A stretch of 64,000 nt of DNA from Ginglymostoma cirratum (Eukaryota): the NCBI GenBank assembly GCA_024137785.1, contig JAHRHZ010000066.1:4962601-5026600 (forward strand), in the 5' to 3' direction. The notes beneath the pieces were generated by a model, which saw only the letters and a program-made list of their open reading frames with translations, ran no database searches and was not told the origin of the DNA. Of the stretch, positions 13,788-60,726 are shown piece by piece. Made by a program: the position numbers and the translations under genes. Every line of letters begins with the position of its first letter. Position 1 is the stretch's first letter.

Positions 13788-13945
13788 AGATAACAAGGTG
13801 TAGACCCTTTTCTGATTTCTGAAGAAGGGTCTAGGCCCAAAACATCAGTTTTCCTGCTCCTCTGATGCTGCTTGGCCTGCTGTGTTCATCCAGCTCTAGA
13901 CCTGGTTATCTCAGATTCTCCAGCATCTGCAGTTCCTGCTATCTC
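13788..13945 (+). mobile_element. Mini Penelope-like element (pseudo-LTR with short inverted 5' piece), perfect 14-bp TSD
   Basis: tattgtttaagtgt at 13774-13787 and 13946-13959; body matches the pLTR at 32831-32960; 5' agataacaaggtgtaga is inverted relative to tctagacctggttatct. Confidence 0.85.
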
Positions 13946-14504
13946 TATTGTTTAAGTGTGTTGCTTTCGATTAGCATAAACTTGCCAAAGTTTGTCAATG
14001 CTGTCATTTCAACTCTGAAACAATTTTATGGGTTGAAGCTCTATTGAATTTGAAACAAAGAAACCACTAAAAAGAGATTTTCTTTGGGAATTAGGGATAA
14101 AAGTGAGATTGGTAATAATTTACTTGCTCTTATTTTGTTCTTAATGGATTTGGCCAAGGGAATGGGGAGAGATCAACATTTACAAAGGTTTTCAATTCTA
14201 TGTCTCATACAATATTCATTTCATCCAATCCACACAAAGGTTTCCTTTCTTTGATTCATTCAATTCACACTGAAATATTTTTTAAACTTTGCAAAATACA
14301 TTCCTTCAATTCAGCAAATGGTTCTTTGTTAACAAGAGGCTGCCCTCTTGCCCTGCAAGTCTAGAATTAGGTCGTGAACTTTGTCAGTGTCAATGATAAG
14401 TGCAGAGTATGCATTCAGTTATCATAAGCCTTCACCTCAACTCCAGTCACTGACACTTTCATGTTGCAATGGGTGTGCAGCTAAATTAAACCTTCAAATG
14501 ACTG

Positions 14505-15095
14505 CAAGTTTTAGCGTGTCCCTCAGCACATAGTCCTGGATCTTCAAATGTGCTAGACTGCACCACTCGGTCAAGGTCAACCCTTTGCTCTGGAAGACCA
14601 ACAAGTTTCAGGCAGACTTAAGGGCACCTTTCACCGAGTTGTTGGTCCTCCAGGCAGAGCCTGTGTTTGTCTCAGTGTGCGTCCCGGCGAACACACCGTA
14701 GAGAACAGAGTCCTGCATCATGGAGCTGCTCAGGATGTACCTTTAGTGGCACAGAGAGTCCGGGCATACAAAAGAGATCTCACAGGTAATGTCCTTCTCA
14801 CTGCCAGCCAAGCGATGTGTAACTGCTGCCAAGGCACAGTGGGGAAAGACCACTGTCTAAGGTCTTTTGCCAAAATTAACTGGGGACTGTTCAGCTATTG
14901 GACGCCTCCAGTGCTTCAAATATATGTAAATATAATCTTGGACAAGTAAGTAATACCTTTGGTTTGTTTGCTGGATAGCGTCAAACTCCAGTGTTTGTTT
15001 CTTCATATGCTGCCATACCGAACAGAAATGCTTCAGTGGCTATATATGTACATGAAGATATTTATGAATAAAGTATATTTTTGAAATTGAAGAAA
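14505..15095 (+). mobile_element. Tx1/L1-like LINE 3' end with 5' inversion
   Basis: 14505-14820 is the reverse complement of the ORF2 C-terminus seen at 27990-28275; 14822 onward resumes in sense (TAAKAQWGKTTV*) and ends with aataaa and an A-rich tail. Confidence 0.7.
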
Positions 15096-16087
15096 ACCTG
15101 AAAGTAACCGCTCATGAGCCAGCTGGACACTTGGTCAAAATAATATAGGCCTGTTGTCACCGTCCTCATGTTAGTTTGGGATCTCTTAAAGCCTTGCTTT
15201 GTTTAGTGTATTAGAGCAATGCATTAGGTTATCTGCCAAGGAGATACAGTCGCATTAAACATCTTAAACTAAGACGTAGTTTAAAGCATGATAGTAAACA
15301 GGTACAAGCTGTACTGGTATGATTGACATGGTTACAAAGACTATGAGGAGTACAAGAGGGTAGGCCTGTCTTGTTTGAGATCCAGAATTGTTCTGTCATT
15401 CCTCTTCCGTCCTTATGACACCTTCAAATTAGGTGAAGCATTACCCCTTTTAGGATTATTGATTTGTACAATATCACTCCCCAATGTTTTTCCCCACAAC
15501 CAACATTTGCACATTCAAGTATATAATTACATTTAATACTACCCCTTCTAACAATTCCTCCCACCCAAACTTCTGACTTTTCAAATTCCAAAATGTGGTC
15601 TCTTCAGATTTGGAAGACTGGTAGTTTTTTTTTGGCTTGAAGACTGCTGACCTTGATTTTGTTCTTGACCCTGTGAGGTCTGTAAAATCTCCCCACTGCA
15701 GGATCTTTTGTCTGTTGAATGTTCTTCATGGAGGATGTTGTTTCTGCTGAAGCAGGCAATTGGTCCATTGCCTCCTCTGGGGGACCCTTTGCCTTTGCCG
15801 AGGAACTTGTCCCTGTCTCATTTCCTCATCGAGAGACCTTTAATATCATTAATGTGTTTCCTGCAAGATGGTTGCTCTGTTGCAATAGGTAGTTACTTCC
15901 TTTCAGAGTCCTGGACCTCTAAGTCAAGCAATTTCCTCTTGACCAGTCCTGAACTTGTGAAGGTTGGTTCAGCATTAACCCTTTCAGAACAATTTCCTCA
16001 AACAACACCTCATTTACTTCCTCTTTTAACCTCAACTTCTCCAATATTTTCCCCATTAGTTTCAGAGCTTCAGCCTTCAAAAAATTC

Positions 16088-16844
16088 CCCAATGTCAGCA
16101 AAACTAAAAAATTGATCATTGACATCAGGAAGAAAGGAGGAGGACACAGCCCAATCTACATCCTTGGAACTGAGATGGAGAGGTTCAGGAGTGTCAAGTT
16201 CCAAGGAGTGACAATAACCAACAATCTGTCCTGGGCTTCCCACATAGACACAAAGGTCAAGAAGACACAACAAAGCCTCTTCTTCCTCAGAAGGTTTAGG
16301 AAAATTGCCATATTCGTAAGGACCCTCACCAACTTATACCATTGCATCTTAGAAAGCATACTATCCGGGTGCATAACAGTTTGGTACAGCAACTGCTCTG
16401 TCCAGAAGCTTAAGACACTACAGAAAGTTGTGTAAATAGCCCAGACCATCGAGCAAGACAACCTCCCATCCACGAATTCCATCTATGCTTCTTGTTGCCA
16501 TGGAAAGGTTGCCAACATCATTAAAGCTCCCTCCCACCCCAATAATAATGTCTTCCAACAGGTAGAAGATATAGAAGCTTAAATACACATACCAACAGGT
16601 TGAAGAACAGCTGCTTCCCCACCTATATTAGAGTGCTGAAAGGACTTCTTTAATTTAAAATCTAATGTTGATCTTGCTTTTGTGTACCTCCTGCGCAGCG
16701 TAATCTTGAACGCCTTGCTCTGTCTAAACATCCGATGAACTATATGTCTTTGTATGCTATGGTCTGCCGGTACTATACACAAAACAAAACTTTTCATTGT
16801 ACTTAGGTACACGTGACATCAATAAATCATATCAAATCAAATCA
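16088..16844 (+). mobile_element. Rex1/Babar-type LINE 3' fragment
   Basis: NVSKTKKLIIDIRKKGGGHSPIYI...VKFQGVTITNNLSWASHID.KVKKTQQSLFFLRRFRK...ILESILSGCITVWY; tail aataaatc(atatc/aaatc)n. Confidence 0.85.
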
Positions 16845-18849
16845 CTGCAATAAATCCCACTTACCATAGACATCTCCCTTGCCAACTCCGTTAGATCCCC
16901 GCCTTCTAATGAATAATCTTCAAAATTTTCATCATCCAGGACTTCACTCCAATTCCTCCATACTACCGCTCATGTTCCTGTACACCTGAACTAGTGTCTG
17001 TCACCACACTTCTCCCATCTTCCAACCTATTTCTGAGGTTTCTGTTTATATCTTTCCACCTTACCAATTTCTCTCTCCAGTTTCAAAAAAATACTGCTTT
17101 TGAGCATGAGACATGTCAAGTGGACAGTTCACAACAGGTGAGTTAGGAGGTGGTAGTAACATTGTATTTCTGCACAATTTTACTTTTAACCTGCGGGCCT
17201 AAAACAGGTCAGGTGACAGGACAAGTGAATTTGTGCAGTTTGAAGTCCTAAAATGTCAAATGGAGATTGATTGCATTTCTCAATTTTCCCACCAGTGAGA
17301 TCAGTTGAGATGACGTGGGTCTTCAAACTAAAGTGTACTTTGTTAAGTGTGAGACAGTGCAGAAGTGCTCCTCCATGCCTCTCAAAGAAAAATATGGATT
17401 CCCTTCTCCTGACTCCCCATTCCTCATTTCTTCCATTTGTATTCATTAGCAGCTTCCAACCCTCCATTCTTCCTCTCCTACCCTCCAGCCAGCTACCCAC
17501 AGGCAGTCATGCAGATGGGATTGCAAATTAAAGTTCCATTGGCCTCAAACTTAGAGCAGTGGCTGCCTGACATAGACCTCTGTACCTTCTCTGTCCAAAA
17601 TCTACATGGGTTTTAAAATTGGCCTCAATGTTGCGTCTATATGAAGGAACAGTCTAACAGATTTTGTTTCAAGTCTTAGAAAATTTTTTTTAGGATCAGA
17701 GACCTTAAGGGATGAAGATAACCTCATTTGGTTGCAGACTGCGCACACGCTAAAAGGGTCTGCAGTGTTAAATTTCTGCCTTCGCTAATTTTAGTGTCAA
17801 GTTGGAGTGAGCTTAAGTGACACATTTAATTCATGCTGTTCAGAGGAATCACTGAAGACACACCATGAGATTATCTGTTGCTGTCTGCTGGAAAAGCAAC
17901 ATCCACAAACTAGCTCTGTTTCAATTTTCTTACTCTTTTTTTTTGTCCTGTTGAAATTGGCGCACAGCAAGTTCCCCTCATCTCTCATCACACTGTCTTT
18001 CCAAAGAGCACTGCCCTAAGGAGTCTGAATATGCTGCTATTTCCCCTTCCTCCATGGGGAACTGCCTAACCTGCACTCAGTGCTTTAGCTGGGTAACATC
18101 GAAGATTAAGAGTTCACTTATATGGTGTTGAACAAGCACACCACACATCACATCACTTTCTTGTTCCATTTCTGAATCTGAACGTTTTGTAGAGTGAATG
18201 AGAAGTACTAATAGAACAAACGGTAAGATTAAAAAAACAACTGATACAAACCCTGTCAGCAAATTAATCTATTTTTTTCTTTCATAGGTTAATATGGGAA
18301 AAACATACGTGATGAAAATGTGTTTCTCACGTTTTCCATTTCTCATTTGCTTTGAAGGCAGTCCCCAGGATGCAGTTTCATGGGCATTGCAGCTTTCCAG
18401 TGGCCTGTCCAAGTTGCTAATTTACACAGCGCAGACCAACAGAATATTTAATGAATGGAGCATCGCACCAAGCTTCATACCTGTCATCACAATTTGCATT
18501 TTACGACATGAGTTGCAAAAATGAGAATTCTGGCTGATATTTCTCTTCCCTCACATTATGGTACTGAGACCAATTGTTACAATCCAATTGCTGTCTCAAG
18601 ACAGACCAGGATGGAACTGAGACCTCCTGGCCTATATGACAATGTTACTAGATAATGCTTTTACCCATTCAGCTATGGTGGAGTGCTAAGTTAATCTATT
18701 CTTTACCTTTGCTAATTTTCCCCACCCTACTCTGAAAGCATTGACTTCTTGTGAATGTATGGCTACTCAGGAACTATTATCCCTCCATTATTTTGCTAAA
18801 ATGAGCATTCTGCATGTGACCAGCTACAATAAATATTATCAAACAACTT

Positions 18850-21800
18850 ATAGTCATAGAGACACACAACACAGAAAAAAGCCCTTCAACCCATTACATA
18901 CATGCTAGTCAAAAACAACTGCCTAACTATTCTAATCCCACTTTCCAGCATCGCAATTGTTAAATAATTCTTAATGTTATGAGAATTTCTATCTCTACCA
19001 CACTTACAGGCAGTGAGTTCCAGATTCTCACTACCCTCTGGGCAGAAATGTTTTTCCTCATATTCCCTCTCAACCTTCTGCCCCTTAACTTAAATCTATG
19101 CCCCAGCCATTAATCCCTCCATCAATGGGATAAGTTTCTTCTTGTCTCCCCATCTACTCCCCTCATACTTTGCGCATCTCAACCATGACCCTTCTCAATT
19201 TCTTCTGCTCTAAAGAAAACAACCCCAGTCCGTCCAATCTCTCATCATAACTCAAATTCTCCAGCCCAGACAACATCCTAGTAAATGTCCTTTGCACCCT
19301 TTCCAGTGCTACCATATCCCTCCTATAACGTGGATTCCAGAACTGCACACAATTCTCTAGCTGTGGCCTAAACGTTTTATACAGTTCCAGCATAACCCCC
19401 CTGCCCTTAAACTCAATGTTTTGACTAATGAAAGCAGGGATTCCATACTCCTTCTTAATCACTTTATCCATCTGTCCTAATACCTTAAGGGACCAATGTA
19501 CACACACGCTAACGTCCTTCCCAGGGTCATGTATTTCATTGCCTTGTTTGTCCTGCCCACGTGTGTCACTTCACGTTTATCTCGATGCAATTTGGTGCTG
19601 ATCAGTCCACCTGACCAGTCTATCAAATCCTCCTGTAATCTAAGGCTATAATTCTCACTATTTACTATCCCACTAATTTTTGTATCATCTGCGAACTTAC
19701 TGATCAACTTCCCTACATTTATGTCTAAGTCCTTTACATAAACCACAAATGGCATGGGCTCCAACACTGATCCCTATGAGTTAAGGTTAGAGTTAGGGTT
19801 ACGGTTAGACATAGACTTCCAGTTGGAAAACACCCCTCAACCATCACCCTCTGCTTCCTGCCAGTCAGCCAGGTATGGACCCAGTTTTCCAAATTTCCTA
19901 TCGATCTGATAGGTTCTTCGCTATCAATCTCCCATGCTGGACCTTATCAAAAGCCTTGCTGAAGTCCAAGTAGACTACATCAAAAGCATTTTAGGTTCAA
20001 AAATTCAGTTAAGTTGGTCAGACATGACCTCCCCTTAACAAAACCAGGCTGACTGTTTTTGATTAATCCGTTCTTTCCAAATGCAGATTAATTCTGTCCT
20101 TCAGAATTGCTTCCAATTGTTTCCCCAACACTAAGATTAAACTGACAGTTCTATAGATTCTTAGTTTATCTCCTGCTTCCCATGAATAACAGTACCACAT
20201 TGACTGTCCTCCAGTACTTTGCTGCCTCTCCTGTGACAGGGAGGAATTGTAAATGATTGCCAGCACCCCTGCTATTTTCTCCCTTGCCTCACTCAACAGC
20301 CTGGGATACATTTCATTCAGCTCTGTAGATTTATCCACTTTTAAACCTGCCAAACCATTCAGAACATCCTCTCTGTCAGTGCTAAATTGTTTAACTGTAC
20401 ACAGACCTTCTCCCTGATTTCTATACCCATATCAATCCTCCCACAAGTAAACACCAACCTGAAGTATTCATTTTGAACTCTACCAACATCCACTGCCTTC
20501 ACACACAAATTGGTCCTTAATGGGCCCTATTCTTTTCCTCATTATCCTTTTACCCTTAATGTATGTATAAAGAAACTTAGATTTTCTTTTATTCTACCTG
20601 CCAGTATCCTTTCATATCCACTCTTAGGTCTCCTACTGTCACTTTTAAATTCCCTCACACACATTCTATACTTCTCTAGATCTTCTGTTGTTTTGAGCCC
20701 GCCCTTTGCCTCTTAATTCATTGCTGTATATCACTCGATGGCCAAAGTTCGCAGGATTTGATGGTCTTTCACTTTTTCTTCATTAAAGCATATTGGTCCT
20801 GTACTGTCTATGTTTCCTTCTTGAATACATCTCACTTTTCTGAGATAATTTACCTGAAAGTATCTGCCTCCAATCCACTCTGGCCACATCATGTCTGATT
20901 TTATTAAAATTCCTTCCCCCAGTTGAGAAATTTAATGGCAGATCCATTCTTGTCATTTTCCACAACAATCTTGAATCTCAGACTTGTGATCATTGTTCGC
21001 AAATTGCTCCCCCATTGATCCTTCAACCACTCACCCCACTTTATTACTGAAAATAAAGTCCAGTACCATCCCCTGCCTTGTACATACTGAGCCTGTTATC
21101 CTGGAAGCATTTTAAGAGTTCTGCTCCCTCCAAATCTTTTGCATAATGACAACCCCTATTGGGGAAATTGAAATCCCCTGTTATCACCACCCTATTACAT
21201 ATACACTTGTTGAAATTTGCCTACATATCTGCCCTTCTATTTCTCTCAGACTGCTAGCGGCTCTATAGTACACTCTCAGCAACTTGATTGCTCCTTTTTG
21301 GTTTTTACATTCTACCTATACGGCTTCATTTGAGGGACTTTCTAAGGTGTCATCTCTCCTTACTGCTGTAAAAGATTCCCTGATCAAAATTGCAACACCT
21401 CCTCTTCTGCCTTGCCTGAAGACACCATATTCTGAAATATTGAGTTGCCAACCATGCCCCTATCTCAACCATGTCCTAGTGATGGCATTGACATCACATT
21501 CCCAAGTTTTAATGTTTACCGTCAATTCATCCGCTTTTATTGTCAGGCTCCTCACAGTAAAATAAATACCATTCAACCTGGCCAAACTTCTTTGTGCTTT
21601 CACTAACCTATGATCTCTATGCCTTCCTGACTCACTTACTGTCTCTTCTAATTTTGGCCAATCATCCCTCCCTGCTGAACCATCTCTCTGGATCCCACAC
21701 CCCTGCCAAGTTAGTATATACCCTCCCCAACAGCATCAGGAAACCTTCCCGCATTCCAATTCATGTTCAGGTTCAATCCATCTGCCTTGTAAAAGTCCCA

Positions 21801-22620
21801 TTGCCCCCAAACGTGGTTCCAATGTCCCAGAAATTTGAAGACTTCCTCCTGCACCTTCTTTCCAGCTACACATTTACCTGGCCTAACCTCCTATTCCTAT
21901 ACTTAACTGCACGTGGCACCAGAAATAATACAGAGAAGACTACCTCTTGGAATCTGTTCTTTAGTCTGCTTCCTAGCTCCCTATATTCTACTTTCAGGGT
22001 CTCAACCCTTTTTCTACCTATGTCATTGGTACCAATATATATCATAACCTCTGTCTGTTCACCCTCTCTCTTCAGAATATCTTTCAGCTATTTGGTGACA
22101 TCCCTGACCTGGCAGCAGGGAGGCAAAATACCTTCCTGGCATTCCTTCTACTGCAGAAATACTTGTCTTCTGTTTACAATGGAATCCCCTGACACTATAG
22201 CCTTGCCATTCTTTTACCTGCCCTCCTGTGCAACAGACCCACCCATGGTGAAAAGGAGTTGGCTGCCACCAATTTCCCCTGCATATGTATCTCCCCCAGT
22301 AACATCCAAAATGGTCTATCTGTTAGAAAGGGGGATGGCCATAGAGACCTCTGCACTAGCTGCCTTCCTCTTCTCTGCTTGGTGGTTTCCCATGCCTTTC
22401 CAGGCTGTTCAATCTGCACCTGCAGTATGACCACCTCAGTGAACATGCTATCCACAGCTTGCTCACTATCATGGATGCTCCACAGTGAATTCACCTGCAG
22501 CTCCAGCTCCGAAACGCAGCTCACCAGTTCCTTCATCTCCTGCACACATGCTCACCAAGATCAACTGGAACTTCCATGATCTACCACTTAACACGGGAGG
22601 GGCATATTGCCGGCGTGAGG
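18850..22620 (-). mobile_element. Near full-length degenerate CR1 LINE (ORF1 esterase-like + ORF2 EN/RT)
   Basis: Minus frames: ORF1-type ELELQVNSLWSIHDSE...MFTEVV (22195-22545) and an IGTNDIG SGNH-like motif near 22020-22040; ORF2 RT ISKFADDTKI (19477-19767) and RPQLENCVQFWNPRYRRD (19163-19507); tail at 18850-18950. Confidence 0.88.
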
Positions 22621-22959
22621 TCCGCTGCAATGACTTCTTTTAAGATCCTAAGTGACTCTCTTTTCTAAAAAGAAATTATGCCCATCTAAGAATATTGTTA
22701 ACTTACTTCCTTTATGCTAACTGTACTTCCCTCACCTACCTTACTTACTTATATTCCTCAATTATAGTGGCCCTGACTTTCATTTCTCTGTTCCTGTCAT
22801 TTCTCAATTAATCCCTTCATCTGAACAAAAATACACTTTCTTGTAAATTCTGAATCGATCAACATACCACTTTCCTGGGATGTTAGAAGAGCTTACAAAC
22901 TATGAACCAATAAAAAGCAAAAAGCACCTCTTTCCTTTTGCATCAAATTCCCCGCTGCT

Positions 22960-26379: not shown

Positions 26380-26470
26380 AAAATGAGAAGCTTATGGAAA
26401 ATTCTCAGCATGTCAGGCAGCATCTGGAGAATGAGAAACGAGGTTGACATTTCAAGTCAATGATGGTTCA
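26380..26470 (-). mobile_element. Degenerate PLE pseudo-LTR 3' fragment
   Basis: ctcagcatgtcaggcagcatctggagaatgagaaacgaggttgacatttcaagtc is the reverse complement of the PLE tail family at 36930-37027 and 47390-47530. Confidence 0.5.
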
Positions 26471-29050: not shown

Positions 29051-29417
29051 TCAGAAACATATACCATATGGAAAATGAAACCGCGCATTTCACTATTTCG
29101 CGCTGGTAACACGTACTTACATTATTCTTTTTTTGTTTCTGCAGGAATCCCCTGAGATGATGTACCTACCACCAGATAAGTAAGCTAACCAGGATGTAGG
29201 ATTCAGTTCCGTTACATTCACCTTGAGGGAAGCAGATATGGAGAATTTGAGGGGGCCACTTGAATGAGGCACGCAGTGAAATTTCTCAAGGACCATGGCA
29301 GCTGCAGGACATTAGAAATAACTGAATAGAAAGATAGACCAAGCCATCTCAAGCCTCACAGTTTCTAACATGAAGGAAACTGCCTGTAGTGGGGAGCGCA
29401 TCAATAGTATAATAAAA

Positions 29418-29575
29418 ATAAAGATCTGCGGGTGCTGAAGATCTGAAGCAAACAAAAACGGAAATTGCTGATGAAACTCAGCGGGTCTGGAAGTATCTGT
29501 GGAGAGAAAGCAGCTTTAACGTTTCAAGTTTTCTCTCCACAGATGCAGCTGAACCAATTGAGATCCTGCAGCTCA
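29418..29575. mobile_element. PLE-derived fold-back mini element
   Basis: atctgtggagagaaa (29495-29509) is inverted with tttctctccacagat (29530-29544); both arms match the PLE tail family. Confidence 0.65.
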
Positions 29576-30584
29576 TCAATAGTGCCTTCCTACACAGAGG
29601 GGAGCTGTGGGTGGGTGTAATTTGGAGATATCCTGTTCTGAAATCTGACTGTTTAGCTAAAAGAGTTAAGCTGGAAGAAGGCCAATGGACAACTCTACAA
29701 ATATCTGCAGAACTGACTAAATGCATGGATACATTTTCCCTCAGAAGCGTTGTGACTAAAACTGTCAAAACCAAAGGTTTCAATTTACACAATGCTCTCC
29801 CTCCTAGCTTGTGAGGAGGAGGGATGAATTGGGAGAATCTTGGTGGCAAATTCCACATCCAAAGGATTTGTTCTGACCGAGAGCATTGAAGCGTGGCAGA
29901 CTGATTTACAGATGACGTAATTAACCGGCCCGACTAGTCCATGTAAATCCAAATTAGATCCCAGCACCTACCCCGCCTCATAAGTGGATGGTAATCAACA
30001 GAGGGTAGCACAGGGTCCAGTCGCGAGGATCCCATTGAGAAATCAAAAGTTGCTACTGTGCCTGCTCCCGCCCACTGAGGCATCAAGAAATCTCAATATG
30101 CCTACCTGTCAGCTATTCCTTTCATTGCCTCCTTCAAATCATGGACAACTGGAATCCTGAGTCATTGTGGCTCTTTCAAGGTATTGTGCACTTACTTTAT
30201 CCTGTTCCTGTCACCCAAGACCATCAGCTTATTAAAGGATATTAATCAGCATATATTAATATTTATACATCCCCCGGTGCTCAGATGACCAGGCCGTTAA
30301 TAAGGGTCTGCACTTCAAGAAGATCCACAGAGGTGAAGATTCTGCACCTTACTGTATTGATGCCTCCTTCCCACAAGAAAAGTGATTAATCTGTTTCCCC
30401 CAGTAGGGAAGCTGCTCTCATGTTGTTTCTGTTGTGAAAAGATTGATGTGACAAATGTCATAAATGACATGAAGGGTGTCTAACACAAGTCCAACAACTA
30501 ACGGCGGCAGGCTTGGGAAGCCTCAAGGAAGTATCAACCTGGCATTCAATGGTTTGGAATTTTCAGTTATACATTTTTAAACAT

Positions 30585-31982: not shown

Positions 31983-32382
31983 NNNNNNNNNNNNNNNNNN
32001 NNNNNNNNNNNNNNNNNNNNNNNNNNNNNNNNNNNNNNNNNNNNNNNNNNNNNNNNNNNNNNNNNNNNNNNNNNNNNNNNNNNNNNNNNNNNNNNNNNNN
32101 NNNNNNNNNNNNNNNNNNNNNNNNNNNNNNNNNNNNNNNNNNNNNNNNNNNNNNNNNNNNNNNNNNNNNNNNNNNNNNNNNNNNNNNNNNNNNNNNNNNN
32201 NNNNNNNNNNNNNNNNNNNNNNNNNNNNNNNNNNNNNNNNNNNNNNNNNNNNNNNNNNNNNNNNNNNNNNNNNNNNNNNNNNNNNNNNNNNNNNNNNNNN
32301 NNNNNNNNNNNNNNNNNNNNNNNNNNNNNNNNNNNNNNNNNNNNNNNNNNNNNNNNNNNNNNNNNNNNNNNNNNNNNNNNNN
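31983..32382. other. Assembly gap (400 N)
   Basis: Run of N. Confidence 1.
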
Positions 32383-32960
32383 CTACATCGGGGAAACCAA
32401 GCGGAGGCTTGGGGACCGCTTTGCAGAACACCTGCGCTCAGTTCGCAACAAACAACTGCACCTCCCAGTCGCGAACCATTTCAACTCCCCCTCCCATTCC
32501 TCAGATGACATGTCCATCCTTGGCCTCCTGCAATGCCACAGTGATGCCACCCGAAGGCTGCAGGAACAGCAAATCATATTCAGCCTGGGAACCCTGCAGC
32601 CCAATGGCATCAATGTGGATTTCACAAGCTTCAAAATCTCCCCTCCCCCAACCGCATCCCTGGACTGACCTATCTCCTCCCTACCCCCCTACCTACACTC
32701 ACCTTTACTGGCTCCATCCCCGCCTCTTCGACTTGTCTGCCTCCTCTCCACCAATCCTCTCCTCTATCCATCCTCTATCCGCCTCCCCCTCTCTCCCTAT
32801 TTATTTCAGAACCCTCTTCCCCTCCCCCATTTCTGATGAAGGGTTTAGGCCCGAAACGTCGAGTTTTCCTGCTCCTATGATGCTGCTTGGCCTGCTGTGT
32901 TCATCCAGCCCCATGCTTGTTATCTTGGATTCTCCAGCATCTGCAGTACCTTTTATCTCT
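32383..32960 (+). mobile_element. Penelope-like element 3' end (GIY-YIG C-terminus + pseudo-LTR); 5' part hidden in the gap
   Basis: YIGETKRRLGDRFAEHLRSV...PVANHFNS...LGTLQPNGIN, near-identical to 40274-40550; 17-bp TSD ga(c/t)acaatttctgtgaa at 31961-31977 and 32961-32977. Confidence 0.92.
32829..32864 (+). ncRNA. Minimal type I hammerhead ribozyme motif in PLE pseudo-LTR
   Basis: attt-CTGATGA-a-GGG tttagg CCC-GAAA-CGTC-gagt: intact core, short helix II, palindromic ACGT helix III (dimeric type), GUC triplet ending at 32860. Confidence 0.7.
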
Positions 32961-33514
32961 GATACAATTTCTGTGAAGCAGTGTTTTTGAGTTCAACACT
33001 GCTTCCGCTGAAAGTATGCAGTGGTTGACATAGTAAGGGTTTTGAGATGGCCCAGGATCTGAGAGGTTACTCTAGTTCTGGGATATAGCTTGAGAGGTCT
33101 TTATGAAGTGGGGAATGATGCCTTACATCTGTAGTGGACAAAGAATCTGCCTCATTCTCCTGACTCTCCTGTTCCTGGCTCCCTTTCTTGCAGTATCTGT
33201 AGCTTTCTTCCTGACCTCATTCCTCCCCTCCAGTTCCTCCAGTAGGCTATGACCACCTTTCTCCTGATGTCTCCTATAAGGTGTACTATAAACTAGAACA
33301 GGACAGCACTCTCTCTCTCTTTGGATGATGCGATCAGAGAAGCTTATTTGGAGTGGGAGGTCATGTGGTGAATGTTTGAAGGGAGTAGGGGAGAAGTGGA
33401 ATCCAGCATTGTCACACATACAAATTTCCAGATGGGAATACAATACAACTGCCTACAAATGGGTAACTAGTGACACCAAGCAAAGGAAATAAATATGTTG
33501 GATACCAAATGTGC

Positions 33515-36749: not shown

Positions 36750-37230
36750 AGATAAATTACTTTATGGACTCATTCCAGCTCGTTATTGATTTGTAGATTA
36801 AAAATCCTATCACAGTAAGCTCCTCCAGTCCAGTGACCCTCTGATTCCAAGATCCTCCAATTCTGGCCTTGAATATCCCGACTTCCTTCACCAATCCATT
36901 GGTAACCAAACCTTCAGCTAAAACCAGTTCTGAAGAAGGGTCACTGGACCCAAAATGCTAACTCTACTTTCTCTCCACAGATGCTATCAGACCTGCTGAG
37001 CTTCTCAAGCAATATCTGTTTTTGTTCTGCATCCTAAGGTGTGGAATTACCTCCTTAAATACCTACACTTCTTCCTCATCTTTAAAAATACTACCCAAAA
37101 TTAAGGTGTTTACTTCTCTTGATGTTGCTTTCTTTGGCTTGATATCATTGTGTTTGTTTGATTACACTCCGATAAAATTGTTTTGGAATGTCTTACCATG
37201 TTAAGGGCGTCATATAAATTCACCCCTGTT
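36750..37230 (+). mobile_element. L2 LINE 3' remnant interrupted by a PLE pLTR fragment (36921-37027)
   Basis: L2 tail similar to 47620-48015; inserted gttctgaagaagggtcactggacccaaaatgctaactc...ctgctgagcttctcaagcaatatctgtttttgttc. Confidence 0.55.
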
Positions 37231-38090
37231 TTTATATTTTACTGAGCATATAACCATATCTAACCATATTAAATATAGTCTATATGCATGTAATTTCAGT
37301 AATTATCACATAGATCCTATTAAAATTCTCTTTTATGTCTATTTCAATCACACAGTTTCCATACCACTGGTTGATCACACCTAAACTATTGATGCAGACA
37401 AAATTTATGTATTTTCATATTATCCATAATCAGTGTTTTGATGTATGAGGGTCATATATTTTCTTATCCTCAAAGGGCATTTTCCCAGTTTAAAAGAATC
37501 CAGCAGCAAGCTTTCACAAATTTAAATATATACAAAATTATTCATGTTCACACACTTGACCTGGAGCTTTAATGTACAATGTTTTGCATATCTTGTTACA
37601 CACACAAAGATTTAAATGAAAGGAGAAAGGCACAGTATGTTTACAAACTGGAATTATTTCAGACTTTCATAGCAGGCTTATATATTCTGAAATAAACCGG
37701 TGTTTCAGTGCAAGTACAGGTCATGTAGAAGTAAAGGATGCTTGTTAATCTTTGAAGCTTCTTATAGTTGAATTGACAAAACATTGGAGTCTTGGGTAGA
37801 CTTGAAGTTGCAAAAGGCTGGAGTGGGATAAGACTCCTTCTTCCAATTTCAAGGTAAAGTTGTTTGTCACTTTGGCTATGTTGTTGTCATATAGCTGGCC
37901 CAGTTACTTTCAGGTGGTATCACTTGATGATATCTGTCTCAGAACAGCTTCTGCTGTCATTTTCAAAAAAACAGGTACCCAATATGTTTCAAAGATAGTA
38001 GGAACTGAGGATGCTGGAGAATCTGAGATAACACGGTGTAGAGCTGGATGAACACAGCAGGCCAAGCAGCATCAGAGGAACAGGAAAGCT

Positions 38091-38118
38091 GATATTTCGG
38101 GCCGAAACCCTTCTTCAG
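38091..38118 (-). ncRNA. Hammerhead-like motif in the inverted pseudo-LTR
   Basis: Minus strand CTGAAGA-a-GGG tttcgg CCC-GAAA-TATC; core intact, helix III palindrome ATAT, AUC triplet. Confidence 0.55.
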
Positions 38119-38450
38119 AAATGGGGGAGGGGAAGGGGGTTCTGAAATAAATAGAGAGGAGGAGGCGGATAGAAGTTGGACAGAGGAGAAGATAGATGGA
38201 GAGGAGACAGACAGGTCAAAGAGGTGGGGATGGAGCCAGTAAAGCTGAGTGTAGGTGGGGAGTTAGGGAGGAGATAGGTCAGTCCAGGGAGGACAGACAG
38301 GTCAAGGGGGCGGGATGAGGTTAATAGGTAGGAGATGGAGGTGGGGCTTGAGGTGGGAGGAGGGGATAGGTGGGAGGAAGGACAGGTCAGGGATGTGGGG
38401 AGGAGGTGGGCTGGTTTTGGGATGCGGTGGGGGAAGGAAGATTTTGAAGC

Positions 38451-40560
38451 TTGAATACCGCTCACGCTTGGCTGTTGAACAGTTTTTCCACCACCTCCGC
38501 CTCCGCGTTTACTTCTTTAACCGTGAGCCTAACCCTCCCCCTACTGACCTCTTCTCCCGCCTCCAACACACCTCCTCCTGGACACCACCCCAAGGCCTCC
38601 TACCCTCCCTCGACCTCTTCATCTCCAACTGCCATTGTGACAGCAATCATCCTCTCCACCCTTCTTACCCACTCCAAGCTCTCCCCCATGGAACGTGCAG
38701 CCCTCCACTCCCTCCGCTCCAATCCCAACCTCACCATAAAACCCGTGGAAAAGGGAGGTGCAGTTGTAGTATGGCGTACTGACCTCTACATCACCGAGGC
38801 CAGGTGCCAACTCTCCGACACCTCCTCCTACCACCCCCTTGATCATGACCCCACCCCGACCACCAAACCATCATCTTCCAAACCATTCACAACCTCATCA
38901 CCTCAGGTGACCTCCCACCCACAGCCTCCAACCTCATCGTTCCTCAACCCTGCACCACCCGCTTCTATCTCTTTCCCAAAATCCACAAACCTGACTGCCC
39001 TGGTTGACCCATTGTCTCCGCCTGCTCCTGCCCCACCGAACTTATCTCGACCAATCTCAACTTTATTTTCTCCCCCTTGGTCCAGGAACTCCCTACCTAC
39101 GCCCGTGACACCACCCACACCCTCCACCTCCTCCAGAACTTCCAATTCCCCGGTGCCCAACACTACATCTTTACCATGCCTTTACCATGGATGTCCAGTC
39201 CCTATACACCCTCATTCTGCCCTCCGCTTCTTCCTGTCCCACAGGCATGACCAGTCCCCCTCCACTGACACCCTCATCCACTTAGCCGAACTCACTCTCA
39301 CCCTCAACAACTTCTCTTTCTCTTCCTCCCACTTCCTACAGACAAAGGGGGTGGCCATGGGTACCCACATGGGCGCAAGATATGCCTGCCTCTTTGTAGG
39401 TTAAGTGGAACAATCCCTCTTCCGTACCTACACTGGCCCTAAAGCCCACCTCTTCCTCCGTTACATTGATGACTGTATCGGCGCTGCCTCGTGCTCCCAT
39501 GAGGAGCTCGAACAGTTCATCCACTTCACCAACACCTTCCACCCCAACCTGAAGTTCACCTGGACCATCACTGATACCTCTCTCTCCTTCCTGGACCTCT
39601 CTGTTTCCATCTCTGGCAACCACCTGGAAACTGATATCCATTTCAAGCCCACCGACTCCCGTAGCTACCTAGAATACACCTCCTCCCATCCACCTTCCTG
39701 CAAAAATGCCATCCCCTATTCCCAATTCCTTTGCCTTCGCTGCATCTGGTGCCTGGATGAGGCATTCCACTCCCGTACATCTCAGATGTCCTCGTTTTTC
39801 ACGGACAGCAACTTCCCCCCCCCCCCACAGTGGTCGAGAACGCCCTTGACTGTGTCTCCCGCATTTCCCGCAACTCATCCGTCACACCCCCTCCCTGCAA
39901 TAACAACCAAAACAGAATCCCCCTTGTCCTCACGTACCACCCCACCAATCTCCGGATCCAATGCATCATCCTCTGACACTTCCGCCATCTGCAATCCGAC
40001 CCCACCACCAAAGACATTTTTCCCTCACCACCCTTATCTGCCTTCCAGAAGGACCACTCTCTCCATGACTCCCTTGTCCGCTCCACACTTGCCCCCCAGC
40101 TCCACCACACCTGGCACATTTCCCTGCAACCGCAGGAAGTGCTACACCTGCCCCCACATCTCCACCTTCACCCCCATCCCAGGCCCCAAGAAGACTTTCC
40201 ACATCAAGCAGATGTTCACCTGCACATCTGCTAATGTGGTATACTGCATCCGCTGTTCCCGTTGTGGCCTACTCTACATCGGGGAAACCAAGTGGAGGCT
40301 TGGGGACCGCTTTGCAGAACACCTGCGCTCAGTTCGCACTAAACAACTGCACCTCCCAGTCGCGAACCATTTCAACTCCCCCTCCCAATCCTCAGATGAC
40401 ATGTCCATCCTGGGCCTCCTGCAGTCCCACAACGATGCCACCCGAAGGTTGCAGGAACAGCAATTCATATTCTGCTTGGGAACCCTGCAGCCCAATGGTA
40501 TCAATGTGGACTTCACAAGCTTCAAAATCTCCCATTCCCCTACTGCATCCCAAAACCAGC
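38451..40560 (+). pseudogene. Disrupted PLE reverse transcriptase / GIY-YIG endonuclease ORF
   Basis: IKPVEKGGAVVV, QTKGVAMGTHMG, FLRYIDD, SFLDLSV, IPYSQFLCLRCI, Cys linker CNRRKCYTC, NVVYCIRCSRCGLLYIGET...RFAEH; in-frame TAA at 39402-39404 and several frameshifts. Confidence 0.92.
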
Positions 40561-41874
40561 CCAGCTCGTCCCCGCCTCCCTTACCTGTCCTTCCTCTCAC
40601 TTATCCCCTCCTCCCACCTCAAGCCCCGCCCCCATCTCCTACCTACTAACCTCATCCTGCCTCCTTGACCTGTCCATCCTCCCTGGACTGACCTATCTCC
40701 TCCCTAACTCCCCACCTACACTCACCTTTACTGGCTCCATCCCCACCTCTTTGACCTGTCTGTCTCCTCTCCAATTATCTTCTCCTCTATCCATCTTCTA
40801 TCCGCCTCCCCCTCTCTCCCTATTTATTTCAGAATCCCCTTCCCCTCCCCCATTTCTGAAGAAGGGAACGTCAACCTTCCTGCTCCTCCGATGCTGCTTG
40901 GCCTGCTGTGTTCATCCAGCTCAGGTATCCAATATGGCGACTTTATCCATGTGACCTGTTACAAGTCTGAACTCCTTTTCTAAATTCGATGTTGTATTAG
41001 GCTGATACTTACTTTGCGTAGTGCATTTTTATATTATGATAACTTGAGATAGCCAATTTTTTTTTGCATGAGAAATCATCCCAATGCAATAAAAGATCGA
41101 TGATATCTATTACATAGATATCTGCCCTTTGAATTTCGATGACTGTGTTGTCCTTTGCAAAGCAGGAAGTCAAAGTGGCTGGCATGTGATGGTTCTGTTA
41201 TTGATGGTCCATCTTAACAATGGAGTATGCGGATTTCACAACGGCTGTGATTTAATTAGGTGTTTACTTAGGTTTCCGGATTGTCCAGAGTTGAATTAGC
41301 CAAAAGTGCATAATATGCTGCCAGCCACCTTAAAAGCTTTTGTGTCCATTCTCAAAAATATAGTTTTTAAATTTGTCAAATCTCCATGCCTGTTTCGGAT
41401 ATGAGACTATATTTACCGATCATTGTTACAGCAGTAGAAAGAGATGACAAGATAAGCCAAAGTAATCTTTGGAGATTCTGGTGAGAAAATGGTTCCGATA
41501 GGCAGTACACAGATTTATCTCAATTCCCTCAGGAGCGGACAGCATACCCAGTTGCTCTCTATACAGCCTGCCCTCCATCTCCAATTGATACTATTGAGGA
41601 ATCTCACATGAACCACATCGGGAGTGCACAGCAGTGTTGTCTCAATGAGTCTCTCCTTGAGGAATCAGTGTAAGTCTGCATAACACTGTTGGAAGAGAAG
41701 GAATGTTCCTGTTCTATGTTTAGAATTAAAGACTAAGAGTGGGTTTAAAATTGTAGTGTGCCTTGTCCGCAGTGTTCTGATTGCAAAAAAAAGGTAGAAT
41801 ATATTGATTTAAAAATTAGAGAAGGCTAAAGGTAGTATAATTTTAATATGAGAAGTTAATTTTCATGTAAACTG

Positions 41875-43290
41875 AGAAAAATTGGCTTGAAGATAGGAGA
41901 CGGACCGTGGTGGGAGAGGGGTGATTTTTGGACTGGAGTATTGTGACCAGCGGTGTACAAGAAGGATCGGTGCACGGTCTCCTGCTTTTCATCATATATT
42001 TAAATGATTTGGATGCGAATATATGAGGAATGGTTAATAGGTTTGCAGATGACACCAAAACTGGTGATGTGGTGGACAGTGAAGAAGGTTATCGCAGAGT
42101 ACAATGGGTACTTGATCAGATAGGGCAATGGGCCGAGGAGTTGCAGATGGATTGTAATTTACATAAATGTGAGGCATTGCATTTTGGTAGAGCAAACCAG
42201 GACAAGACACATACAGTTAATGGTAGGTGCCTGGGGATTGTCGCTAAACAAAGATACCTAGGAGTGCAGGCACATAGTTCCTTGAAAGTGGAGTTGCAGA
42301 TAGATAGAGTGGTGAAGAAGACCTTTGGCACACCAGTCTTCATTGGCCAGTGCATTGAGTATAGAATTGAGACATCATGTTGCAGCTGCACAGGGCATTG
42401 TGGGGGGGAGGCACTTTTAGAGTGTTTTGTTCAATCTGCTCTCCCTGCTATAGGAAGGATGTTGCTAAACTTGAGACAGTTCAGAAAATATTTACAAGGA
42501 TGCTGCTGGGATTGGAGGGTTTGAGTTATTGGGAGAGGCTGAATAGGCTGGGACTATTTTCCCTGGAGCACCGAAGGCTGAGGGGTGACCTTATAGAAGT
42601 TTATAATATCATGAGGAGCATGGATAGGATGAATAGCCAAGGTATTTTTCCCAGGATTGGGGAGTCAAAAACTAGAGGGCATGGGTTTAAGGTGAGAGGG
42701 GAAAGATTTTAAAATGATCTGAGGGGTAGCTTTTTCACACAGAGGTCGGTGGGTGTATGGAATGAGATGCCAGAGAAGGTGGTGGAAGCTGGTATAATTA
42801 CAATATTTAAAAGGCATCTAGATTGGTACATGAATGGGAAGGGTTTAGAGGGATTTGGGCCAAATGACACTAGATCAGTCTAGACTTTATTATAGAATTG
42901 CTACAGTGTGGAAACAGGACATTTGACCCACCAAGTCCACACCAACACTCCAAACAGCATCCAACCCAGATCCATCTCATCCCTGCATTTCCCATGGCTA
43001 ATCCACTTAGCCTGCACACTACACGCAATTTAGCATGGCCAATCCACCTAACCTGCACATCTTTGGACAGTGGGAGGAAACTGGAGCACCTAGAGGAAAC
43101 CCATGCAGACATGGAGAGAATATGCAAACTCCACACAGAAAGTCGCCTGGGGGTGGAATTGAACCTAAGTTCCTGGCGCTGTGAGATAGCAGTGCTAACC
43201 ACTGAGCCACCACGCCACCCATATCTGGCTGGAATGGAGGGGTTGGACGAAGGGGACTGTTTCCATGCTGTGTAACTCTTTGACCCTATA
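41875..43290 (+). mobile_element. CR1 LINE 3' fragment (RT to tail)
   Basis: NRFADDTKTG...KCEALHFGRAN; SPCYRKDVAKLETVQK...RRLRGDLIEVY...TRGHGFKVRGERF; tail split by a SINE. Confidence 0.9.
42890..43218 (-). mobile_element. HE1-like tRNA-derived SINE inserted in the CR1 tail
   Basis: Minus strand ggcgtggtggctcagtggttagcactgctatctcacagcgccaggaacttaggttcaattcc (A and B boxes), conserved body, CR1-like tail. Confidence 0.85.
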
Positions 43291-44287
43291 AGAGTGGAGT
43301 AGCTGAAGTCAGGAAAGTAGTGAACATGCTGCATTGAAGATAGTTGAGTACAGAGTCCTGAAGCAACCAGAAAGTAGGTGATTTTGTGCCAAACCAGATT
43401 CAGCTCATAATCCAGCCGTAATGGGACATTTATCTAATAGCGATCAGAATGTGATCTAATTCAATGGTAGGTTTGAAAAGAAGAAACATTACCATCTTAC
43501 TTTAGAAAGCTAACATGGGACAGAGAATGGTAATAGCAAAGTGGACATAACTATTTTTAGGTAAACCTATGGACAGTATCAGGTGTTCAGAAAATAGCTC
43601 AATACAAGATCATTATATATCGCCTGGGATCAAGAATTCTACTCACCAAATTAAACACTCAAGGTCAGTAAAAGAGCTGAGACATACCATGAAACCAAAT
43701 AGAAGTGAGTACAAAAGTGCAAAGAACTGTGTGGATCCTGAATGATTGAAAAATAAACAACATCATAGGAAGATGAAAAAAGGTAATAACTGCCTAATAG
43801 AATAGGAATTTAAACTTGAGAGGAATATCAAGATTATCACAAGAAGTTTTTACAAGCATGTTGATTTAAAAAGTCATAGTCAAAGTTTATTGGGAGGCCC
43901 CCAAAGACCAAATGTAGATAATATTGGAAACCAGAATAAAAGATAGACAGAGTGATTCCTTTTGATCTGCATTTGATCATACAATGGACAGCATCGAGAG
44001 CAGTGAACACAGTATACTGAATTGAAAGAAGCAAGGTAAATCACTGTTTAATGACAAGGGAGTGTTTCAGTCCCTAGGCAGTGGGAGGGGAAAAAAATGT
44101 AGCAGGCTCTGAATTTCCAGAAGCATTATCATTACCAGAAGCACTGGTATGGGTGGTGTCATTGTCAGAACTCAGACAAAGGAGTTGGAAAAGCTGGGAA
44201 AATGGAACTTTGTCTGTACAGGAAGCAAGGTGTGAGGAATTATCATCAAGGTGGCTGGGAAAATCAGTGGACCTAGAAAGGATACAA

Positions 44288-44496
44288 AGTAAGTAAAGTT
44301 GTTATAGTCCTAGTAGACCACTGGGGAGCTCTCCCATTGGAGAGAAAGAGACAACCATTGGTGGTTTAACCAGAGGGTTAGCATGCCTCAGAACTAGGGA
44401 GAAGTTGAGAAGAAGAGTCCTTCATGGTGACCTCAGCCAATGTCAGAATTGAACCCATGAGGTTGGCAAACTAATCAACTAAGCTAACTGACCCCC
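44288..44496 (-). mobile_element. tRNA-derived SINE
   Basis: Minus strand ggggtcagttagcttagttg...gggttcaattc head, (actt)n tail; similar to 57885-58078. Confidence 0.6.
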
Positions 44497-46399
44497 TAAA
44501 AGCATGTACTGAATTGATCATGGAAGGGGTTGTAGTTCAGCAGACCATAATGAGTCTTGACTGATGTTTTATGATTTTAAAATAAGTCAATACGGTAGAT
44601 AGAGGGGATTTTTTTTCCTCTAAAAGGGAATCTAGGATATAGGAATGTGATATTAAAGCCAGGGCCAAACCTTTCAGAAGCTAACATCAGAAACATCAGA
44701 TTCCTTGAAAGGATTTCTCAATTTACCTGGCTGATTTTCTATTATTTAAATGGTAAGTGAAACTTATAAAAATCCATTTGTTGTTTAAATGATAGACTTT
44801 TTCAGCTCAAACTGGTCAAGGTCACTAAGTTTCTTTTACCTTCTCCTTCAACAGTGGTCCTTCACAAACCAACTCCTGCAACGATTCCCACTCCATTTGC
44901 TCTGTACATTTATGACTTTCCCTCTGCCCTCAGTACAAAAACACACGCTGAGAACCCATCTGCCACCTGCTTCCTCACACCATCATTCATTGTCCCCAAG
45001 CACACTGTTCCCAGCAGCCTGTGACTTCCATCTCCTCCTCCCTTTCTGACATCTCTTGATGTCCCCACCCACTTTCCATACCTCTGCCCAACCCATTGTT
45101 CTCAACTCTATGTGTGTCATTCTTCCCTGTCTGTTCCCTGCTGGTCACTCATACCTCAGACTTACATTTGCCACTTGTCAATTTGTCTGCATCAAACCAA
45201 TGTTTTTTCAGAGACAGCCTGCAACCCAGTTTTCACATCCCTCAGAGTTTTCAGAACTCTGACATGCAGTAATTCCCCTTCTCAATATTGTCACATCTCA
45301 ATACCTCCAATTTCATGGATCTACACCCCAACTCTCCCTTTCCATCATTATCAACTGTCACCATTACTTTCCAATGTTTACACCATAAAGAATTCACAAA
45401 CCTTCTAACTCCCTGAAACTGCTTAACTGTAATCGCTGCTTTGAATCACATCAACTTGCCAAAAGCCTCTGCACAACTATCTACCTCTATCCTGGAACAA
45501 TTTTCTTAACAGGTAAGAACTAAGGTTAACTAAGGTACATAAACAGAAACGTAATAATAATAATTAAGGTTATTGATTTACATTTCTGTAACAAATACTC
45601 ACACGGTTTTGGAATTTGACCTAACAGGCTACTAACACTCCCAGAACACTGCAGCATTTATTTGTACATTTAGTTAATAATATACTAGAAAGAACATCAG
45701 AGCTTCAATATATGAATGTATTCATGACCCATTGGACTGACCCTGCTATCAATCGTAGAAACACTTCCAGGTAAGAGGGAACTTCCTGTATTTAACTAGT
45801 TACACTAACATTGGTATATTTAACTGGATACAAAATAAAACTTCAAAATAAATAGCAATAAAACAACGATTATAATTTAAGAGTCAACACTTCCCATCAT
45901 GATTTCTTCCTTATTAATCTTGCTGGTTGCTGATTCATTCTAATGAATCTTTCTTTATCTTGTATGGTTTCTTAGTTGCTCTTCTGTCTCCCTTCCTACC
46001 TTCTCCAAGCTCAATTTCTTATTATTCACTCATTGGATATAGGCATCGCTAGCTCAGCCAGCATTTATTGTCCATTCCTAATTGCACATAAGTTGGTAGT
46101 GACCTCTTGAACTGCTGTAGGCCTTGCATACATGACCTTAAGAAGATAGTTCATGAGATTCATTTCCTGCATGTACAGCCCTATTTCCACAAAACTACAA
46201 ACCATCAAAATTCCATTCCTGGCTGTAATACATGTGCCAGAAATACTGAGCACCTCAGACAGCATCTGTGTAGAGAAACAGACTTAATGATTCAAGTTGA
46301 TGATGCCCTTCATTGTTTGCTTTTACATTAGAGTCACTTTGTGGTTCCTATGTTAATTGATTCAGTTAATGGGCTCTTTCCCTTAGGTATTGTTCTTCT

Positions 46400-48015
46400 A
46401 TTGTTCAAATCTGCTGTCATCAGCCCTCTTCTCAAAGACACCTCAACTTTGCAAACTAGATCCCATTTATGACCTTCTTATCCCCAAAGTCCTTGAATGT
46501 ATTTTCATCTCCCAAGTCCATTCTCATCTTTATGTGGAACTCCGTATCATAGTCCCTCTAATGACTTTACCATCCCACCTTCTCAAAGTTACAAGTGACA
46601 TCCTATATTATTGCTACAAAGTTAACTATCTCTTTGAACCTTTCTTAATCTCTCTGCTGTCCTTGACACAGTTGATTCCACCATTCTCCTCCAAAATCTT
46701 TCCAATATCCAGCTAAGTGGGAGTGTACTCACCAAGATCCAATTTTACCCATCTATTTGTGACTGGAGAACACCTGCAATGGGTTTAATTTTCATTCCCA
46801 TGCTATTACCTTTGGTGTCTTCAAGGACCTATCCTTGATCTCTTCCTACTTCACATCAACATGTAGCACCACCTCAATGTCATCTGAAAGAGGTCAGTTT
46901 CACCACCAAGCTTATTTCATAAATATCTCTCTTCACTCTTCCAATGTCTCTGAATTGTCAGACTTTTTGCTTAACTTCCAGCACTGAATGAATAGTAATT
47001 TTCTCCAAATAAATTTTAAGAAGACCCAACCCGTTGCCTTTCGTCTTCACTGTAATCTTCACTCCCTGAGTCACCAACTCCATTCTCCCCTCTGTTAATT
47101 GTTTCAGTCTGAACCAGTCTTTTCACAACTTTGGTGTCATATTTGACCCTTATTTTGGGATTCCAATCACGTAAACGTGCAATTACTAATCAGCCTGCCT
47201 ATCTCTATCGCCATAACATCAACTGACTCCGAGTTTTCTTCAGTGCATCTTCTGCTTATCTATGCGTTTGCTGTCTCTAGACTTGATTAAATCAATGCAT
47301 TCACAGAAAATGCTAGAGAAACTCAGCAGTCTGGCGCCTTCTGAGAAGAGAAAGCCAATTAACATTTGAGTCCAGTTTTACTCTCCTTCGGAAGAAACTG
47401 GAGAACAGGCATTCTGGACTTGAAACATTAACTCTGTTTATCTCATAGCTGATGCTGTCAGACCTGCTGAGTTCCTTCAGCATTCTCTGTATTTGTTTCA
47501 GATTTCCAGCATTGCAGTAATTTGCTTTCTTTTTCAACACATTTCTGGCTGCTCTCCCATATTGTCATCTCTACAAACTTGGTATCAACCAAAACTCTCA
47601 TGTCTATATTTAAACCCATTTCAAGCTCCACCAGGTTAAACAACACTTGCTTTTAAAAATTCCAGTGTTTGTTTCAAATCCCTCCATGCTCTCATTCCTT
47701 TGTATTTTTGCAATCTCCACCAGCACTACCACCCTCTGAGACAATTCACACATCTAATTCTGCCATCTTGAGCATCCCCAATTTCAATCACTCTCCCATC
47801 GGTAGCTGTGTCATCAGTGGTCTCTACCATTCTACATTTGCTTCCCTCCTTTGAGACATTCCTTAATATCTATCTCTTTAACCAAGCTTTTTTTCATCTA
47901 CCCTAGTATCTCCTTATGTTGCCCAATGCCTATTTGGTTTTATAGTGCTTTCCTGTGAAGTGACTTGGAATGTTTTATGTTAAAAGCACCATATTAATGC
48001 AAGTCATTGTTATTA
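46400..48015 (+). mobile_element. L2 LINE 3' portion, degenerate
   Basis: Decayed RT-like segments (DLS.A.DTVD-like near 46640-46690, GV.QG..L.P-like near 46810-46850, NFGVIFD near 47130) and L2-type tail ...attaatgcaagtcattgttatt. Confidence 0.6.
47302..47533. mobile_element. PLE-derived fold-back mini element inserted in L2
   Basis: tgctagagaaactcagcag / ctgctgagttccttcagca and ttaacatttgagtccag / ctggacttgaaacattaa inverted arms; flanks tcaatgcatt (47292-47301) and tcaacacatt (47534-47543). Confidence 0.7.
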
Positions 48016-55092: not shown

Positions 55093-55214
55093 TCCTCTGT
55101 CTTGGACCCTGCTGAAATTTGATTCATAAAGCTGTTACCATTTCAAGTTTGAATGGAAAGTCATGTGGTTTGAACAAGTATCAAAGCTACTCACATCATC
55201 CCTCTGGCCATTCA

Positions 55215-60665: not shown

Positions 60666-60726
60666 AGGTTTCACTCAAATAGGTGATAGGGTCTGGAATG
60701 TACTGCCTGGAAAAGGTGGGAAACCA

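Follow-up and report, generated by a model that had tools for sequence, protein, structure and literature searches.

The window analysed here is a 64,000-nt stretch of the Ginglymostoma cirratum genome (assembly GCA_024137785.1, contig JAHRHZ010000066.1, positions 4,962,601 to 5,026,600 of the forward strand). It contains six short fragments, called stubs below, that match the tails of the pseudo-long terminal repeats (pLTRs) of Penelope-like elements (PLEs), together with longer PLE copies and unrelated repeats. All six had been pointed out in an earlier interpretation of the letters alone (the sequence-only reading), which placed them in at least two pLTR families; both points were confirmed, and the families are named A and B here. 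The six fragments are ordinary dead copies, separate insertions of the PLE end that carries a hammerhead motif and a tail. Element positions are counted from the C of the hammerhead box CUGANGA (+1), and the predicted cut lies after +28 in family A and after +30 in family B.

The family A stub (13788-13946, + strand) opens with a 27-nt inverted patch (13788-13814), followed by a sense copy from -4, a decayed core and the long tail end. Its sense arm starts at the A at 13815, which is position -4, with a G directly before it. An exact 13-bp target-site duplication (TSD; 13775-13787 and 13947-13959) flanks the stub, and its junction occurred only once in the genome when up to 2 mismatches were allowed. 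The other stubs belong to family B or resemble it. Two are old, 26380-26455 and 46234-46300 (both - strand), and were alignable from about +12 and about +6 of the core, respectively. Two are head-to-head: the arms of 29409-29573 end at +23 and about +39, with an exact 10-bp TSD (29399-29408 and 29574-29583), and those of 47302-47533 end at about -2 and +1, with a probable TSD (47292-47301 and 47534-47543; 8/10 matches, judged by eye). The family B solo stub at 36921-37027 (+ strand) has a decayed core and a 5' end between -5 and about -20, which is uncertain in that shuffled flanks reached equally far in 84% of trials. None of the six stubs keeps an intact catalytic core, and a search for empty insertion sites with their flanks returned nothing useful.

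The only intact core in the window is that of a family A long copy (32383-32966, + strand), which comprises a GIY-YIG end, the 3' untranslated region (3'UTR), a minimal hammerhead (32833-32860) and the long tail, its 5' end lying behind a 400-N gap. A 5'-truncated family A element (37987-40921, + strand) consists of an inverted arm (37987-38453), the remains of an open reading frame (ORF) for a reverse transcriptase (RT) with GIY-YIG endonuclease (38448-40646) and the 3'UTR, between copies of a 15-bp TSD that match at 14/15 positions (37972-37986 and 40922-40936). In its 3' hammerhead (40850-40880) helix II is gone, with about 11 nt missing between the two conserved boxes; a scar from an imprecise template transfer would be expected at this spot, and 24 other long copies that were viewed were seamless there.

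Elsewhere in the genome both tail types were joined to RT/GIY-YIG ORFs. For family B, 4 of the 30 loci had the tail linked to a homologous ORF, and these ORFs shared about 45-57% protein identity with the window ORF, which indicated that both families are PLEs, as the sequence-only reading had supposed of the fragments. The window ORF matched Pfam GIY-YIG at E=3e-4, just short of the cut-off, and contained a YIDD motif and a Cys-rich C-x4-C-x2-C linker between RT and GIY-YIG; a search of solved structures with this ORF gave no match. A Zn-finger-like Cys linker is common to Neptune and Nematis (PMC8557442; this and the papers below are cited for portions of their text), and the linker of the window ORF, as far as its residues go, fits either. 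The suggestion that a Neptune RT/GIY-YIG protein mobilised the stubs was thus borne out as regards an RT/GIY-YIG element with such a linker, but not as regards Neptune in particular, since Nematis has the linker too. The hallmarks of endonuclease-bearing (EN+) PLEs were present, namely a partial tandem pLTR, an inverted 5' arm, a one-sided tail and a TSD, and families A and B are both EN+ PLEs.

A descriptor of the minimal type I hammerhead gave 88 matches, 60 of them with a helix II of at least 4 bp in several compatible variants, compared with 1 and 0 in the reversed sequence. The Rfam scan yielded no hammerhead match, as expected for the minimal form, and its three matches were of low complexity. 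Helix I of the family motifs is only 2-4 bp, and single-strand folding of the core was no better than that of shuffles (z -0.81 to 0.33). The motif is the same as that of metazoan PLEs (PMC4209133): it has the CUGANGA and GAAA boxes, an unpaired base before helix II, a G-C closing pair, palindromic ACGU for helix III and a short helix I, and it likewise occurs mostly as single motifs from truncated PLEs with some opposite-strand pairs, although the six window copies are decayed. The ATG of the ORF lies about 165 nt downstream of the first base of the core.

The family A breakpoints were mapped in the window together with 35 untargeted stretches of 10 kb, at 90 loci chosen by tail patterns and in 40 further 10-kb stretches with tail hits; loci fetched outside the window carry L-numbers (L096, L325, L359 etc.). 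De-duplication left 281 tails; setting aside 1 that did not fit and 36 next to N gaps gave 244 for analysis. The family B sample comprised 110 older B-like tails, for which looser scoring over-extends upstream. Core and junction counts for the whole genome came from tight-pattern searches of the assembly, which held 67,185 exact family A cores. The untargeted sequence contained 41 family A tails in 377 kb, so the 9 tails in the 64 kb of the window represent an ordinary density.

The 5' ends of the family A copies were far from uniform. As many as 84 of 244 fell at -8 to -1 (mode -3), compared with 5 at -50 to -9 (p about 1e-60), and 46 lay further upstream (8 censored); inside and after the core there were 79 ends at +1 to +26, 5 at +27 to +31 and 25 at +32 to +60. 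Thus 84 of the 135 copies that reached -1 stopped within the next 8 nt. The same edge was seen in the untargeted subset (16/36 ends) and in the B-like tails, 37 of 110 of which started at -10 to -1, and 22,474 exact family A cores genome-wide carried a non-native base at both -7 and -13. The earlier claim of non-uniform breakpoints tied to the hammerhead region therefore held well beyond the window.

Stubs made up about 80% of the tails (193/244). The 3' ends clustered at two places, with 70 of 236 at +92-94 and 75 at +127-131, and TSDs of at least 7 bp flanked 33 of 92 solo stubs compared with 12 of 300 controls. Half of the stubs (97/193) had a head-to-head partner, and 36 of 51 pairs combined a long and a short arm. 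The paired arms agreed at subfamily columns (e.g., 25/30 and 39/45), except at two others (11/22 and 26/45), and either arm could reach further (15 vs 17). These results indicated that head-to-head stubs are two complementary DNAs (cDNAs), rather than one, joined after trimming. Snap-back copying of a single cDNA was rejected on the latter ground and also because short arms hold sequence absent from long arms. Post-insertion deletion was ruled out, as the TSDs abut the stubs. A splice acceptor was rejected as the cause of the edge, since AG is missing from this position in family A and no common exon precedes the family B stubs. Some fold-back junctions are shaped by microhomology in helix II. 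Assembly gaps adjoin PLE tails, both in the window (31983-32382) and at the 36 dropped tails; they are probably hairpin centres, and fold-backs would accordingly be undercounted.

At the edge, family A reads CCATTTC and family B TCAGTTC, and both agree with YYANWYY, the initiator consensus. In family B the best TATAWAWR-like site begins 31 nt upstream of the A at -4 (8.5 of 10 copies), and in family A it lies at the same distance, tied with one at -27 (77 copies). This spacing is common to both families though their upstream sequences differ; among the 77 long copies of family A, 65 keep the position of the predicted promoter. In the long copy of the window the putative promoter occupies 32798-32832 (+ strand), with TATTTAT at 32798-32804 and the initiator-like CCATTTC, whose A at 32829 is the position of the genome-wide cliff. 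Caps are known to template an extra base and polymerases to slip on initial T-runs, and the junctions at the edge carry both marks expected of a capped RNA 5' end, additional T's and an untemplated G. A run of at least four T's stood at the edge in 33 of 118 stubs compared with 2 of 76 long copies. Among non-templated stub cases, the base before ATTT was G in 13 of 24 (25% expected, p=0.002), and in 8 of 17 without inverted partners (p=0.04; control 16/62). A count by eye in a genome-wide listing, partly overlapping this sample, gave 17 of 28. Moreover, at ORF-to-stub junctions, where the upstream sequence is known, G was the last of the inserted bases in 6 of 9 rows (p=0.01), or 6 of 7 without the two rows starting in the UTR. 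A literature search found no paper on cap-derived G at retrotransposon junctions. A promoter in the Drosophila Penelope pLTR is documented (PMC2377424), and rotifer pLTRs have TATA plus initiator motifs (PMC3846280).

What the copies themselves show is the edge with its promoter-like motifs and extra T and G bases, the pair of 3' ends, the TSDs and the head-to-head arrangement. The shared edge upstream of the hammerhead is likely to be the capped 5' end of the element RNA, where the RT runs off after internal priming in the tail, and we infer from the sequence an RNA start site at -5/-4. A TATA/initiator promoter in the pLTR would start the RNA at this site. The RT/GIY-YIG protein would nick both target strands and prime internally at +94 or +128, and most cDNAs would reach the cap within 100-135 nt and end as stubs by run-off. 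Trimming or microhomology joining would scatter other ends through the core, and a cDNA would often be joined to a second one primed from the other strand, giving a long and a short arm. A few cDNAs would jump from the cap end to another RNA site and produce partial tandems. Neither the TATA box nor the ORF-start region is part of a stub, so stubs would be inactive from the moment of insertion.

Several observations weigh against a capped RNA end at this edge. The 79 ends inside the core are accounted for only by inferred trimming, and the tails next to the dropped N gaps have their apparent ends mostly in the core. The family A TATA site has two mismatches besides the tie, and the promoter match rests on two families. 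The G excess involves small numbers, templated C is the commonest base before ATTT (49/73), and no evident G excess was seen by eye in family B. Helix I has its 5' arm at this same edge, and so does an ATT motif of the kind preferred by the anole endonuclease; position alone does not separate these from a start site. Furthermore, reads from polyadenylated (polyA) RNA had no pile-ups of begins or ends and equal depth on both strands, and no RNA 5' end was seen in them. Because of these two features, the polyA signal is taken to report mostly stubs inside host transcripts. Loose read ends at +33 were an artefact of a subfamily indel, back-joints were indistinguishable from genomic tandems, and a second RNA run gave only 32 and 59 reads, the polyA library being unsuited to unit-length or circular RNA.

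The sequence-only reading had named the ribozyme fold or its cleavage site as the boundary of the copied RNA. As the RT travels from the tail to the RNA 5' end, a cut RNA would give core-less stubs and a roadblock would stop the RT 3' of the fold; neither is the main pattern. That hammerhead self-cleavage creates the 5' end of the copied RNA is refuted for the bulk of the copies and hardly credible as their general cause: ends at +27 to +31 were not enriched in family A (p=0.86) and only 4 of 110 B-like tails started at +27 to +35, most stubs contain the uncut core, and insertion by the anole Poseidon element needs no cleavage, nor, in the portion of that study cited, do RNA reads end at the site (PMC11167929). 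The motif does carry minimal-hammerhead features, however, and a few units start at +29/+30: L325, L337, L327 and L354 among 102 units that carry an ORF start, L329 and L373 (both at +29) as the landing units of 2 of 55 jumps, and L110. Since these seven units begin at or one base past the predicted cut, some templates were probably ribozyme-cut. It is also unlikely, in our view, that the edge at the 5' foot of helix I arises because the hammerhead fold, or some protein attached to it, blocks the RT or guides processing there. In either family the cliff falls on the 5' arm of helix I, ends within the core are frequent, and some fold-backs use the self-complementary helix II (L184). Yet the stopping rate was 0.005 per nt at +27 to +40, where a roadblock should act, compared with 0.078 at -8 to -1, with a smooth rise towards -4 and no step 3' of the fold; the RT traverses the full motif and comes to a halt only beyond it. 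The short helix I and a fold no better than shuffles also speak against a block, which would leave the TATA spacing, the G and the extra T's unexplained. In favour of the sequence-only reading stand the few starts at +29/+30, the helix II microhomology, a junction found at two loci and short tandems elsewhere.

Trimming of longer cDNAs by the element's own endonuclease, nicking its new DNA at ATT before the core, has a very slight chance of being the cause. For anole Poseidon, cleavage of both strands at 5'-ATT-3' within the element's own pLTR has been described (PMC11167929), and family A has ATTT at -4. But family B has AGTT there with the same cliff, other ATT/TATTT sites at -35 to -28 have no peak, and the head-to-tail ORF-to-stub junctions with an added G better fit a template end. 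It is likewise quite improbable that the stubs form a self-propagating non-autonomous family with its own masters, like short interspersed elements (SINEs) or the retrozyme-like class that had been proposed for the window. Their share of the tails is large and varies between subfamilies, 44 of 127 ORF-start units sit in short tandems, one of them a trimer, and the fold-back junctions of L096:1367-1539 and L097:1367-1539, with a 20-nt spacer, are the same although they lie 41 kb apart in different flanks. These two are the only ones in the genome; the junctions tested genome-wide had 1, 2 and 2 (same locus) matches, the first being that of 13788-13946, and none of 44 ORF-to-UTR junctions recurred between different loci. 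Every variant tested was common to stubs and long copies, none being private to stubs, and the window contains no tandem units. Stubs also have neither a TATA-like box nor the ORF-start region required in vitro. Shared variants, one-off junctions and the missing TATA box together indicate that the stubs are by-products of a known class and not a retrozyme family of their own.

Of 127 ORF-start units, 26 were directly followed by a unit at the hammerhead front, 23 of which started at -4 to -7, and 55 by another element part. In 35 of the latter the join lay at -44 to -125, giving units of 300-370 nt with the predicted promoter and the hammerhead. The remaining units continued (25), ended in flank (16) or ended in gaps (5). 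L359:1356-2666 is a head-to-tail trimer of units of about 360 nt (3'UTR, hammerhead, tail and ORF start) with an inverted arm and a TSD; it falls within the retrozyme definition, one of its units spans an N gap, behind which an assembly duplication may lie. In L327, L331, L334, L341 and L355 (about 1050-2140), TSD-flanked head-to-head insertions carry the same ORF-start-to-3'UTR junction in both arms, and the junction of L341 is absent elsewhere in the genome. Such sharing suggests either that each of the two RTs made a jump from one end of a single RNA to the other, or that they copied a circle or a lost donor. R2 RTs are known to jump templates from full-length cDNA (PMC11371274).

We therefore entertain, as a tentative possibility, that the stub corresponds, among PLEs, to the strong-stop DNA of retroviruses, and that the RT, primed close to the RNA 5' end, must jump from the cap to the RNA 3' end to copy the ORF. 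This 3' end would possibly be cut by the hammerhead, and the core would serve as the shared repeat. Failed jumps would leave stubs, jumps to short transcripts would give the 300-370-nt tandems, and successful jumps would rebuild the pLTR. The 23 of 127 units followed head-to-tail by a start at -4 to -7 and the five shared-junction insertions support a route of this kind, short of proof. Long copies may instead come from read-through or circular RNA.

The elements resemble Neptune/Nematis-type EN+ PLEs in the RT with C-terminal GIY-YIG, the Cys-rich linker, the hammerhead pLTR and the partial tandems. EN+ PLE insertions have been described as 5'-truncated, with an inverted 5' arm, a one-sided tail of 30-40 bp and a TSD (PMC8557442, PMC3846280), and the head-to-head arms, the 34-nt tail on one arm and the 8-15-bp TSDs found here agree with this. 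Unlike in those descriptions, truncation is non-random here: about one third of the copies stop within an 8-nt window and about 80% are shorter than 140 nt. In our literature search, no study turned up in which the 5' ends of PLEs were mapped to a start site, and the portion of PMC6155905 cited contains nothing on sharks. The tail of the anole Poseidon element PAc is likewise defined by two internal sites at which the RT starts, and in vitro both target strands were extended and the ORF start was needed, while hammerhead cleavage was not (PMC11167929). The ORF of PAc starts inside the hammerhead, in contrast to the downstream ATG here, and the cited portion of that paper is silent on run-off at the RNA 5' end.

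Non-LTR retrozymes are head-to-tail repeats with a hammerhead in each unit and a circular RNA (PMC7229834), and they have been tied to PLE pLTRs and are already on record for one cartilaginous fish, with a mean consensus of 363 bp (bioRxiv 10.64898/2026.07.22.740005). The stubs share with them the origin from a PLE pLTR, the lack of coding sequence and the type I hammerhead, and the 300-370-nt tandem units outside the window resemble them. The six window fragments, however, are solo or head-to-head and without an intact core. The findings bear on how PLEs rebuild the pLTR and on what their hammerhead does; no obvious mechanism other than tandem formation is given in the cited part of PMC2377424. 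With several hundred thousand insertions, the genome amounts to a natural 5'-end mapping experiment. The insertions place a probable start 4-5 nt upstream of the ribozyme, show that the RNA copied was mainly uncut, and preserve jumps made from its 5' end. Nucleotide-level predictions follow for RNA 5' ends and for an in vitro PLE assay, and a route from PLEs to retrozymes is outlined.

In addition, the window contains repeats unrelated to these elements. Three related decayed repeats (4696-5419, 42027-42866 and 54439-55122) had no Pfam match, and we take their translations to resemble the 3' ends of CR1-type long interspersed elements. The dispersed pair at 8321-8532 and 42987-43209, about 200 nt long and 72-83% alike, is presumably SINE-like. 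An ALKBH8_N match at 15953-16432 (+ strand, E=1.5e-7) is probably part of another RT-type repeat. At 61633-62043 (- strand), a fragment of an integrase core (rve; E=7e-6, below the Pfam cut-off) likely represents the remains of an LTR retroelement, and a degenerate TG-rich microsatellite at 60279-60677 accounts for a weak Rfam match to mir-297.

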